Assembly (NCBI RefSeq): GCF_003334785.1
Contig: NZ_QOWV01000005.1
Reading direction: 5' to 3' (one strand)
Origin: Escherichia coli
GTDB lineage: Bacteria; Pseudomonadota; Gammaproteobacteria; Enterobacterales; Enterobacteriaceae
DNA length: 64,000 nt
Made by a program: the position numbers and the translations under genes. Each line of letters opens with the position of its first letter. Positions within the stretch are counted from its first letter, which is position 1. A model generated the notes under the pieces. That model worked only from the letters and a program-made list of their open reading frames with translations, was not told the DNA's origin and did no database searches. Shown in pieces: positions 8,706 through 11,573 of this stretch.

Positions 8706-11573
8706 TCATGCGGAAGGTGAACTCAACGTCCAGCTCACCGCGAATAATTGACGGAACGTTATTTCCGTCGCCAGCTTTTGCTCGACCTCTTCCAGCAGAC
8801 GGTCCTCTTCCTGCTCGATTTTTTTCTTTTCATCATGATACTGCAACATGATGCTATCCCGCTCGCGTTCCAGCACCTTTAATGCGCGCTTGGCTTCCAT
8901 TTTCTCTTTTAGAGAAGGAAGCTGACGGGCGGCTTTACGCGCCTCTTTAATTTCTGCATCTAACTGTTTGATACGTAAGTCCAGCGCGATACGTCGATCT
9001 TCTGACCAGCGTTCAAGTTTTTCTACTTCTTCATTGTAATAAAGTTCGTTATCGCGTTCGATCTGTTGGATAAAAGAATGCCGTAAAACCTCACATTGTG
9101 TTGTTAACGCAGGCAGCAAAGGCTGTTCTTCGACAGATGTTATCTCTGATAATGGCAGGCGAAGCAGACGGGATACGGTTTCCTCTGCCAGCACTTCGCC
9201 ATTTTCTGTAACAGCGACGGTCAATAGTTTCTCTCGCTGTTGCTCCTGATTTCCGATGCTGACTTTTGCCAGCAACAGCTGTCCCGATTTCCCGCAGAAC
9301 AGTTTAACATCGGCCAGTTGTCCGCTTCTGGGTTGGTAGATGAAATGGAGCTTCTGGCAAACTGGGGATGTGGAAAGGCTTGCCCCTTCATGCAGGGCAG
9401 CATCAATCAGTTGCTTCCCATATCCCTGGCTGGGCCGGAAGAATTCGGCATCTTTTTCATCCGCAATGGGCCAGTTGACGTCAAAATACTTTCCTCTGGA
9501 ACGAAAACCCGTCTCAGAACGTTGAAAATCGCTCTCGTCGCTCAGAAACATTTCCGCCAGCAGCAACAGATTTTCTTGGTAATCGTTTAACTGCGCGAGG
9601 GTGGTTGTACGTCGGGTTTTCAGATTGCGGACCACATCAACGTCAAAATGCTCGAATAATGAACGCCGGGTTTCATTCTCCCGATTTTCCAGTTGATCTT
9701 TGAGTTCATCCTGCAGCTGATTAAATTCCTGTTCAATTTGTTCATCGGAGCGGCAGTGCTGGTATATCTCATGAATACGTCGTTCAATATCAACACCTGA
9801 TTCGATCGACCCCAGAATGTCATCGGATGCGCCAAACACCCCTTCAAAAAGCTGGAACTTCTGGCTCAATAATTCAAACACGCGCTGATCGGCACGGTTG
9901 CCTTTATTAATAAAATTAACCACCACGACATCGTGTTTTTGTCCATAGCGGTGAACACGCCCGATACGTTGCTCCACGCGCTGCGGATTCCACGGTAAAT
10001 CATAATTAATTAACAGCGAACAAAACTGGAGGTTGATACCTTCTGCGCCCGCTTCAGTACAAATCATCAGGGTGCCTTCGTCCCTGAATTTTTCAACCAG
10101 CGCTGCCTTCATATCCGCCGTACTCGAACCGGAAACCCGGCCAGAGTTCTGATGTTTCTCCAGCCAGTCGCTGTAAATCTTCTTCGACACCGCATCGCTA
10201 TTGCTGCCATTGAGCAGAACCACTTCTCCCTCGTAGCCACTTTCTGACAACAGTTGCGCCAGCCAGGTCTGGGTGCGTACGGACTCGGTAAAAATGACCG
10301 CCTTACGTAATCCGCCCAGTTCAGCCGTAAAGGTAAAGGCCCGATCGAGAACGCGTAACAGTGCTTCGGCCTTGGCGTTTTTGGTAATCGATGCCGCTAA
10401 AGTCTTATAATTTTTTAACTGGTCAATTTCGGCCTGTAGCGCCTGAGGATCGATGGTATCTTCGTCATCAATGCCTTCTTCATCGCTGTAATCGTCGTAA
10501 TTTTCATAATCCGTCAGCGCATCCAGCACCGGCATTTTACTTTCAAGACGGTGGATCATCGTTTCCAGCGTTCCCTGGATCGCTGTAGACGATGAGGCCA
10601 GAATTTTACGAATGACTAACGTTACTAGGTGACGCGCGCCGCTTTTGATCGCCAGTAGATCGTCCCGCTGCAAATAAGAGGAAACCTGTTTATAGAGCAC
10701 TTCTTCGTCTTCCGTCGGACGAAAGTCTTCGGTTATTGAATGGCGTCGGGTAAAACTGATCCCGCCTTCCTGCTGAACCTGTCGACGAAGCGTTCGATTA
10801 CAGATTTTATTCAGACGAACCCTTAATAATGCCAGTTCTGCATCGTCAATATTCTGTCGGGAATAACGGGCCTTGAACGAAGCAAGGTCGCCGAAAAAAT
10901 GAGGATCAATCACGGAAATCAGGCCGTAAAGCTCAAGAATACTGTTTTGTAGCGGCGTGGCGGAAAGCAGTATTTTTTTTCTGCCGGACAGTGCGCCACT
11001 GAGTTTTTTGGCTGTTTTAGCGCCATCGTTCTTGTAGATATTACGCAGTTTATGCGCCTCATCCATGACGACCAGATCCCACGGGATTCGTGCCAGCTCG
11101 TGCTCTTTACGGGCAGCGAATTCGTATGAACAAATGCAGATCGCCGCTTTCCCGGTTGCATTTTCAATATCAAAGGGATTATCGCTCCCCTCTTTAACCA
11201 TTTGATTGAAGATCTTCGCTTCAATAATTTGTGAAGGCAGCGAAAATTTCTCTTCCAGCTCCTGGCTCCACTGCTTGCGTAGCGTTGCGGGTGCAATCAG
11301 CAACAGTTTTCGGCGGCGTTCAGCCCATTTTTGCGCCAAAATCAGGCTGGCCTCAATAGTTTTCCCCAGTCCCACTTCATCGGCCAGGATCACGCCATTC
11401 GACAGGGGAGATGCCAGCGCAAACATCGCAGCCTCTACCTGATGAGGATTCATATCAACCCGTGCGCTGGCAATAGTTTGCGTCAGCGAGTCCTCGGCTT
11501 TGCCGCTTAACGTCAACCAGTGGGCCAGATAACTACGTTGGTGATCTGAATACATTTTCATACCTTTGTGCAA
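8706..11573 (-). CDS. SNF2/Swi2-family (SF2) helicase-like ATPase with C-terminal coiled-coil region
   Basis: 955 aa; motif I 'LADEVGLGKT', motif II 'VVMDEAHKLRN', motif III 'LLSATPLQN', helicase-C block 'GINLQFCSLLINYDLPWNPQRVEQRIGRVHRYGQ'; charged heptad-rich C-terminal ~150 aa. Confidence 0.85.
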   Translation of the reverse strand: MHKGMKMYSDHQRSYLAHWLTLSGKAEDSLTQTIASARVDMNPHQVEAAMFALASPLSNGVILADEVGLGKTIEASLILAQKWAERRRKLLLIAPATLRKQWSQELEEKFSLPSQIIEAKIFNQMVKEGSDNPFDIENATGKAAICICSYEFAARKEHELARIPWDLVVMDEAHKLRNIYKNDGAKTAKKLSGALSGRKKILLSATPLQNSILELYGLISVIDPHFFGDLASFKARYSRQNIDDAELALLRVRLNKICNRTLRRQVQQEGGISFTRRHSITEDFRPTEDEEVLYKQVSSYLQRDDLLAIKSGARHLVTLVIRKILASSSTAIQGTLETMIHRLESKMPVLDALTDYENYDDYSDEEGIDDEDTIDPQALQAEIDQLKNYKTLAASITKNAKAEALLRVLDRAFTFTAELGGLRKAVIFTESVRTQTWLAQLLSESGYEGEVVLLNGSNSDAVSKKIYSDWLEKHQNSGRVSGSSTADMKAALVEKFRDEGTLMICTEAGAEGINLQFCSLLINYDLPWNPQRVEQRIGRVHRYGQKHDVVVVNFINKGNRADQRVFELLSQKFQLFEGVFGASDDILGSIESGVDIERRIHEIYQHCRSDEQIEQEFNQLQDELKDQLENRENETRRSLFEHFDVDVVRNLKTRRTTTLAQLNDYQENLLLLAEMFLSDESDFQRSETGFRSRGKYFDVNWPIADEKDAEFFRPSQGYGKQLIDAALHEGASLSTSPVCQKLHFIYQPRSGQLADVKLFCGKSGQLLLAKVSIGNQEQQREKLLTVAVTENGEVLAEETVSRLLRLPLSEITSVEEQPLLPALTTQCEVLRHSFIQQIERDNELYYNEEVEKLERWSEDRRIALDLRIKQLDAEIKEARKAARQLPSLKEKMEAKRALKVLERERDSIMLQYHDEKKKIEQEEDRLLEEVEQKLATEITFRQLFAVSWTLSSPSA

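Follow-up and report, generated by a model that had tools for sequence, protein, structure and literature searches.

The Escherichia coli defence system ietHAS (Liu-DS4) consists of the ietAS gene pair together with ietH, a gene for a SNF2 helicase that resembles the DISARM protein DrmD (Nucleic Acids Research 2026, PMC13069673; bioRxiv 10.64898/2025.12.08.692795, December 2025). According to the accessible part of that report, substitution of the Walker A lysine (K65A) or of the DEAH aspartate (D165A) of ietH leads to a loss of protection against T7, the activity of the protease is needed for defence, an ietA mutant could not be constructed, and induction of ietHAS with a mutant ietH results in toxicity; these mutant data indicate that the ATPase of the helicase is needed for IetAS-based defence and that it restrains the toxicity of IetAS (PMC13069673). 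Here we describe a SNF2-family ATPase gene (8706..11555, minus strand) located in a 64,000-nucleotide stretch of E. coli DNA (RefSeq assembly GCF_003334785.1, contig NZ_QOWV01000005.1), the whole of which is referred to as the window in the following. Judged from its sequence, this gene is very probably ietH, and comparison with related loci places it at the head of a conserved cassette that also comprises the Mod and Res genes of a Type III-like restriction system.

The identification with IetH follows from the combination of several features. In the 949-amino-acid protein, the lysine of Walker A and the aspartate of DEAH are numbered K65 and D165, positions identical to those that were mutated in ietH; the organism is E. 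coli; the gene is located immediately upstream of those for an IetA ATPase and an IetS S8 protease, giving the gene order SNF2-IetA-IetS; and its prevalence (74 of 5426 complete E. coli genomes, the O104:H4 outbreak lineage included) is similar to the value of more than 1.5% that the accessible text gives for ietHAS in E. coli (PMC13069673). The initial annotation of the window had drawn attention to a helicase with a coiled-coil end encoded beside an ATPase; such an arrangement is essentially already known from the ietHAS paper. The part of that paper accessible to us presents a three-gene system, and within it neither the Type III-like Mod and Res proteins nor the C-terminal hairpin described below is mentioned, and the scarcity of IetAS among the relatives of the helicase is not remarked upon (PMC13069673). 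The pipeline outlined there took out the proteins of complete known systems before operons were defined, so that Mod and Res would have been hidden in such a survey (PMC13069673).

BrxHII and related helicases, RapA among them, possess a C-terminal topology with a helical insert, as set out in a comparative paper from 2026 (PMC12839542). The helicase studied here has this C-terminal module in common with the BrxHII-type enzymes, which are likewise paired with an N6-adenine methyltransferase and whose loci also embed 'backup' effectors, for example Schlafen-kinase proteins and OLD (PMC12839542). It differs from them in that it carries neither an N-terminal Tudor domain nor a fused nuclease, and in that its partners are Mod and Res instead of BrxC and PglZ or a DUF499 ATPase. 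RapA (HepA), the RNA polymerase recycling factor, is encoded by a housekeeping gene outside of defence operons, whereas the present gene is part of such an operon and its product lacks the Tudor N-terminus. The classic Type III enzymes (EcoP15I, EcoP1I) resemble the locus in having a Mod protein with DPPY and FxGxG motifs, a Res protein that combines a superfamily 2 (SF2) helicase with a C-terminal PD-ExK nuclease, and Mod and Res genes that are only 2 nt apart; the Res protein of the window, however, is a weak match for the curated model of Type III endonucleases, at 35 bits where the cut-off is 564. The anticodon nuclease PrrC is an abortive-infection effector whose gene lies within the EcoprrI locus for Type I restriction and whose activity the restriction proteins control. 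Both the type of restriction and the effector differ from those considered here, and the control of IetAS by the helicase is known from mutant phenotypes only.

The helicase-Mod-Res unit and its cargo

A scan of one genome per species with a profile of the C-terminal part of the helicase yielded at least 587 loci. We compared the five proteins of the E. coli operon (helicase, IetA, IetS, Mod and Res) with the best 80 of these at least 587 loci and with three loci (L002 to L004) that were reached through individual homologues. For the count of linkage to Mod, L002 and L003 were added to the best 80 loci, and 73 loci of this set have at least 5 kb of DNA downstream of the helicase gene. A homologue of Mod follows the helicase on the same strand in 70 of these 73 loci, which are distributed over many phyla, and Res comes next wherever the contig extends far enough. 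Since this linkage is found whatever the junction between the helicase and Mod genes holds, the conserved unit is helicase-Mod-Res. Its two downstream members are of Type III kind, with a β-class N6-adenine methyltransferase (Mod) adjacent to a protein that joins an SF2 helicase to a PD-ExK nuclease (Res).

Full-length homologues of the E. coli Res protein were detected by tblastn in 36 loci (39-74% identity), and the identity of the helicases to the E. coli protein correlates across loci with that of the Res proteins (Spearman 0.74, n = 34). In 22 loci the similarity to the E. coli Res protein was no more than partial; a second lineage of Type III Mod/Res seems to be present in most of these, and the remainder are cut off by the contig end. 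In L044, the one locus examined directly, PADLOC assigned MTase_III PDLC03634 and REase_III PDLC03647.

No gene intervenes between helicase and Mod in 26 of the 70 loci. In one of the loci studied, that of Burkholderia ambifaria (L039, 11107-11110), the helicase stop codon and the Mod start codon overlap as ATGA, a classic arrangement for translational coupling. Genomically, and often translationally, the helicase is coupled to Mod/Res. The closest relatives of the E. coli helicase, those from Vibrio, Photobacterium and a gammaproteobacterial metagenome-assembled genome (67-70% identity), are encoded in loci without IetAS.

Same-strand inserts of 0.4-7.5 kb are present at the helicase|Mod junction in the other 44 of the 70 loci, as identified by clustering and PADLOC. 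About 15 of them encode a Schlafen/AlbA_2-plus-kinase-like protein. AbiU/AIPR was found in four loci and in addition in the Neisseria locus L004, HEC-01A with or without HEC-01B in four, AbiJ and an LmuB-like ATPase in three each, and PDC-S13, SIR2+HerA and Old in two each, while ThsA+ThsB, PDC-S02, PDC-M41A, PDC-M32A and Ppl occur in one locus each. A single Nitrospira locus (L023, 11263-14865) carries IetA+IetS at this very position; its proteins are 40% and 24% identical to the E. coli pair, and cargo of this type seems to have been acquired here independently. The helicase|Mod junction is hence a hotspot for cargo, of which IetAS is one kind, gained at least twice. In the open-access literature, we found no report of either the SNF2 plus Type III Mod/Res triad or of this hotspot, which is a weak negative given that scope.

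Several side observations concern the cargo and the helicase family. A highly charged, coiled-coil-like protein of about 430 amino acids recurs as the first cargo gene, both in L025 (11098-12411, before SIR2+HerA) and as a 427-amino-acid open reading frame in L042 (before Old); this protein has no match in PADLOC. Some members of the family (P0129 and P0140, about 1990 amino acids; also P0171, P0172, P0193 and P0204) are fusions with about 400-1050 extra residues. When family fusion proteins were examined with PADLOC for a fused Mod, none was detected; there were SNF2 matches only, plus a UvrD/GajB-like match in the N-terminal part of P0129. Many fragments of the family carry the label 'adenine-specific DNA-methyltransferase' in JGI. 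Homologues of the helicase are split into two open reading frames in Vibrio harveyi (L002 8441-11188), in the locus L003 (1257-4084) and in Neisseria meningitidis (L004 8740-11617); these could be pseudogenes, sequencing errors or cases of on/off switching.

The SNF2 motor and its C-terminal hairpin

Pfam assigns residues 45-310 of the helicase to SNF2-rel_dom (8e-38) and residues 457-540 to Helicase_C (5e-17), and the motor motifs I (GLGKT, with K65), II (DEAH, with D165), III (SATP) and VI (QRIGRVHRYGQ) can be read directly from the translation. With an SNF2-type N-terminal lobe, a Helicase_C lobe and these four motifs, the protein falls into the SNF2 family of ATPases, just as had been proposed from the bare sequence. 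Structural models were calculated with AlphaFold2 on a 61-sequence alignment, both for the C-terminal 376 residues (predicted local distance difference test, pLDDT, 89.9) and for the full-length protein (pLDDT 89.0; predicted template modelling score 0.85). The two-lobe motor spans residues 31-570 (9846..11465, minus strand) and is preceded, in the full-length model, by only about 30 residues that form two short helices. The sequence shows the SNF2 motor of the helicase to be intact and joined to a conserved C-terminal module. An acidic stretch (DYENYDDYSDEEGIDDEDTID; residues ~340-375, window positions ~10431-10538) is present between the motor lobes and is modelled with low confidence; the region that holds it (residues 331-410) varies in length from 58 to 110 residues among homologues.

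The motor is followed by a segment (9543..9845, minus strand) that is highly conserved in the alignments (FGASDD.LG, ESGVD.E) and that leads into a long helix (residues 604-671) with a predicted kink near residue 635. An alpha+beta region (residues 683-808; 9132..9509, minus strand), delineated by the AlphaFold2 secondary structure and by the coverage of the PADLOC model PDLC02500, contributes the first strands of a C-terminal sheet. From there the chain passes into an antiparallel helical hairpin (8772..9113, minus strand; pLDDT 90-97) made up of a helix at residues 815-877, a turn with the sequence QLPS (878-881) and a second helix at residues 882-928. A terminal beta strand (residues 931-945; 8721..8765, minus strand), which has the family consensus LFTIRW.L in the alignment, rejoins the sheet in the models. 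Both models have the same topology: strands within residues 757-808, hairpin helices of 63 and 47 residues, and the closing strand. Because the chain exits the sheet before the first of the two long helices and re-enters it after the second, these must run antiparallel within the molecule; the models thus predict that the charged helices form a protruding antiparallel arm of a single molecule and not a free tail.

It had been suggested that the last ~150 residues of the helicase are a highly charged, heptad-rich region for oligomerisation or partner binding. The charge is there: Asp, Glu, Lys and Arg make up 46-52% of residues ~826-925, which contain nearly no Pro or Gly and are predicted to be helical with a pLDDT above 90, and the peptide cited at the time (EEVEKLERW...ERERD) is present in the translation. 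The region is shorter than had been thought, amounting to 114 residues (815-928), and it is not a terminal tail, as the strand at residues 931-945 comes after it. With respect to the heptads, a strong pattern is confined to residues 851-892, the site of the best 28-residue window of the whole protein, and a single continuous register over each predicted helix was not better than that of shuffled sequence (z -0.6 to 1.25). We dropped the label 'canonical coiled coil' for this reason, and because the model folds back on itself. With an antiparallel intramolecular arrangement and a heptad signal that is local only, a parallel coiled coil that might serve oligomerisation is not indicated.

Across 60 homologues (35-51% overall identity), the two helices of the arm are nearly constant in length (60-63 and 40-47 residues), and the charged fraction (41-47%) and a seam of hydrophobic positions are kept; sequence identity amounts to 22-25% in the arm as compared with 52-61% in the motor. 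When the last 376 residues were used as the query, 252 proteins from many phyla were recovered, most of them with 99% query coverage at 30-35% identity. Pfam has no family over residues 560-949, searching the PDB by sequence, whether with the C-terminal profile or with the whole protein, turned up matches to the motor only, and fold searches with the C-terminal model returned generic helical hairpins only. The hairpin is present at its conserved length in homologues that are joined directly to Mod without IetAS, and the alignments extend to residue 944-945. As the same arm is kept in these cargo-free proteins, it has not evolved to bind the ATPase or the protease, and the proposal of a tail for partner binding loses its footing, all the more since the hairpin is described for BrxHII and RapA (PMC12839542). 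The hairpin is an ancestral feature of BrxHII-type SNF2 helicases and not an adaptation to IetA or IetS. The arm was there before IetAS and persists beyond it, which makes a role as an integral element of the motor, in contacting DNA or in contacting Mod or Res more likely than one in docking IetA or IetS.

The nearest defence-family models are those of DrmD (PADLOC PDLC02619, 4e-201; NCBIfam DrmD_b, 1.5e-198), so that the comparison with DISARM drawn in the initial annotation was well chosen. The best profile matches to DrmD take in the motor together with the first segment behind it (residues 28-664) and leave the C-terminal 300 residues uncovered, and the NCBIfam scores stay below the curated cut-offs (662 against 950 bits for NF038318, DrmD_b, with the match ending at about residue 650; 249 against 610 bits for NF038317). 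A class 1 DISARM call by PADLOC demands all five of DrmD, DrmA, DrmB, DrmC and DrmMI (PMC9252829). PADLOC and NCBIfam detected no DrmA, DrmB, DrmC or DrmMI in the operon, which matches IetA, IetS, MTase_III and REase_III only, and the RefSeq neighbours of the operon are island and insertion sequence (IS) genes. An assignment as the DrmD of class 1 DISARM was rejected on account of the score below the curated cut-off and of the missing DrmABC genes. Residues 464-869 are matched at 8e-75 by the PADLOC model PDLC02500, which bears the label BrxHI|BrxHII, and the AlphaFold2 models show the C-terminal hallmark of BrxHII, an alpha+beta domain whose last strand is preceded by an insertion of two long helices. 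Type 3 BREX BrxHII was rejected nonetheless, since the protein has no Tudor domain and the operon has no BrxC, PglZ, BrxA, BrxF or PglXI partner.

The five-gene operon and its genomic island in E. coli

The helicase gene (RefSeq WP_000286651.1, 'SNF2-related protein'; 949 amino acids plus stop) opens a tightly packed defence operon as its first gene, and the order of the open reading frames on the minus strand agrees with this earlier assignment. A mechanical open reading frame call gave an uninterrupted frame of 955 codons from a TTG (11573..8706, minus strand); TTG 11573 is the start in that call only. ATG 11555 is likely the better supported start, since it is the one used by RefSeq, has the sequence AAAGG 9 nt upstream and is in keeping with homologues that align from residue 2-3. 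In several E. coli strains the chromosomal sequence is 100% identical to the helicase open reading frame.

The second gene encodes the AAA+ ATPase IetA (326 amino acids; 7700..8680, minus strand; PADLOC IetA, 4e-105; RefSeq 'AAA family ATPase'). The mechanical call had extended it to 334 codons (8704..7700), and it is from the GTG at 8704 that the initial annotation derived a helicase stop codon only 1 nt from the start of the ATPase gene and, with it, translational coupling of the two. RefSeq places the start at ATG 8680, the PADLOC IetA profiles align from their own position 1-2 to the protein beginning there, and the Nitrospira IetA protein starts at the equivalent residue. With this homology-supported start, the helicase and IetA genes do not overlap and are separated by a spacer of 25 nt (8681..8705, minus strand) with an AGGAG Shine-Dalgarno sequence 7 nt before the ATG. 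The two genes are close, clearly co-transcribed and non-overlapping; the tight operon stands, and the coupling to the ATPase, which depended on the wrong start codon, does not, a true stop/start overlap (ATGA) being found between helicase and Mod in cargo-free relatives.

Next come the genes for IetS, an S8 (subtilisin-like) protease of 795 amino acids (5303..7690, minus strand; PADLOC IetS PDLC02198, 1206 bits; RefSeq 'S8 family peptidase'), and for the Type III-like N6-adenine methyltransferase Mod (542 codons; 3665..5293, minus strand; PADLOC MTase_III PDLC03636, 964 bits; motifs DPPY and FAGSGTTG; RefSeq 'site-specific DNA-methyltransferase'). A recognition motif of Mod was not found in the open-access literature on the E. 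coli O104:H4 methylome. The Type III-like Res gene (956 codons; 792..3662, minus strand; PADLOC REase_III PDLC03648, 2119 bits; RefSeq 'DEAD/DEAH box helicase') encodes the SF2 helicase motifs Walker A, DEAH, TATP and QTIGRGLR and a C-terminal PD-ExK nuclease (EPDF...IEPKK). A small open reading frame after Res (97 amino acids; 410..703, minus strand; RefSeq hypothetical) is predicted to have a hydrophobic helix at its C-terminus (LLLKTTGCILSVIILIVGIGFYT); neither PADLOC nor NCBIfam gave a match for it, and it accompanies the five-gene block in E. coli.

In each of the 74 helicase-bearing E. coli genomes, 80% or more of the five-gene block of 11.2 kb is present; within E. coli, the association of the helicase with the block is absolute. 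The G+C content at third codon positions is 0.51 for the SNF2 gene, 0.52 for IetA, 0.56 for IetS, 0.35 for Mod and 0.46 for Res. The operon is a compositional mosaic in which Mod is much more AT-rich at these positions than the other four genes, and as evidence for an insertion of IetAS base composition is ambiguous, the SNF2 gene being nearer to IetA and IetS than to Mod and Res. An open reading frame for a tyrosine integrase (14539-15801, minus strand) adjoins a tRNA-Phe gene (15999-16074, minus strand; RefSeq), which places the defence operon in a tRNA-Phe-associated genomic island. Remnants of IS1, IS3, IS30 and IS66 are annotated around the operon in RefSeq.

A proposed motor between restriction and an embedded effector

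The account that we favour, with a probability of roughly 0.6, is that the helicase is a SNF2 double-stranded DNA translocase and the first subunit of a SNF2-Mod-Res cassette into whose junction IetAS was inserted, and that its motor couples restriction to the effector. IetA and IetS, the former an AAA+ ATPase antitoxin and the latter an S8 protease toxin, would have entered the SNF2|Mod junction in this E. coli lineage. The motor would translocate on double-stranded DNA in complex with, or alongside, Mod and Res, and this same activity may signal to the embedded effector what state the restriction complex, or the invading DNA, is in. The effector would be silent in normal cells and would be freed on infection, by analogy with PrrC under EcoprrI. 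Such control would resemble that of effectors that other restriction or BREX loci carry within them (PMC12839542). It had been surmised earlier that the helicase may feed the Type III enzyme or the protease arm; this idea goes the right way, with the helicase probably serving both.

Several points weigh against this account. Three of the 73 loci (L016, L028 and L032) have no Mod after the helicase, and two of them (L016 and L028) have no Res either: in L016 (11121-15037) the helicase is followed by a Schlafen-like protein, a 484-amino-acid protein and an NsnA-like protein, in L028 (8445-14337) the helicase homologue adjoins a type I-E CRISPR-Cas operon, and L032 retains a partial Res. To our knowledge, classic two-gene Type III enzymes such as EcoP15I function without a SNF2 partner. 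A contact of the helicase with Mod, Res, IetA or IetS is inferred only, and the assignment to IetH depends on agreement in residue numbers, in organism and in gene order. Furthermore, as stated in the accessible text on ietHAS, the three-gene construct protects against T7 without Mod and Res (PMC13069673), and the helicase must consequently have at least one role that is independent of them.

This last finding also speaks for a helicase dedicated to IetAS, that is, a third component of the toxin-antitoxin pair whose arm binds IetA or IetS or oligomerises, with the Type III enzyme as an independent neighbour. Such a reading accommodates the protection conferred by the three genes alone, the loss of protection in the K65A and D165A variants and the toxicity of the system with a mutant ietH (all from the accessible part of PMC13069673), the location of the helicase and ietA genes 25 nt apart in one operon, and the presence of IetA+IetS behind a homologous helicase in the distant Nitrospira. 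IetAS is present, though, in only two of about 70 related loci, the helicase is joined directly to Mod in the 26 loci noted above and sits next to unrelated cargo in others, the hairpin has the same length throughout and is reported for BrxHII and RapA as well (PMC12839542), and each of the 74 E. coli genomes with the trio has Mod and Res as well. We therefore regard a dedicated IetAS helicase as rather unlikely.

Less probable still is a RapA-like factor that acts on RNA polymerase and senses or dislodges stalled or foreign transcription complexes, for instance those of T7, thereby freeing the protease. RapA is the closest solved relative of the helicase by sequence (E 5e-36), the BrxHII-type helicases have the whole architecture of RapA past the N-terminus (PMC12839542), and T7 is the only phage for which restriction is reported in the accessible text on ietHAS (PMC13069673). 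The Tudor domains of RapA and BrxHII are missing here, their place before the motor being taken by the two short helices, and the close and frequently overlapping association with Mod argues for a function in DNA modification and restriction instead. Beyond the motor, our searches revealed no similarity to RapA in sequence or fold; the literature does report a shared C-terminal domain (PMC12839542). Finally, a derivation of the helicase from class 1 DISARM (DrmD) or type 3 BREX (BrxHII), as a remnant or variant without its former partners, is very improbable in spite of its best family matches, to DrmD and to the BrxHI|BrxHII model, since the DrmD_b match is below its cut-off and ends at about residue 650, DrmA, DrmB, DrmC, BrxC and PglZ have no match in the operon, and the SNF2-Mod-Res arrangement is conserved across phyla.

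Returning to the SNF2-Mod-Res account, we tentatively consider a wider version of it, which we think possible but hold to be doubtful as yet: the helicase family would mark a class, as yet without a name, of Type III-like restriction systems that have three subunits (SNF2-Mod-Res), extend across phyla and hold at their SNF2|Mod junction a dedicated docking site for abortive-infection genes. The helicase would be the common switch that silences the embedded effector (IetAS, SIR2-HerA, Thoeris, Old, AbiU and others), with the effector firing when the complex is blocked or when foreign DNA is met. If this is true, 'ietHAS' would be one case of a general restriction-guard design.

The helicase as such is very probably not new, having been published and tested as IetH, and its arm has already been described in relatives. 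What is new is the context, which changes the reading of ietHAS: the helicase belongs first of all to a restriction cassette of hundreds of species, and the protease/ATPase pair is one of at least 14 kinds of defence cargo at the same junction. Tools of the PADLOC type would report such SNF2-Mod-Res loci and their cargo piecemeal, and the helicase|Mod junction offers a predictable site in genomes for finding new defence genes. Should the restriction enzyme indeed be coupled to embedded effectors by the helicase, this would provide a simple, testable model for the wiring of layered defences, and it would explain why IetAS needs a DNA motor.

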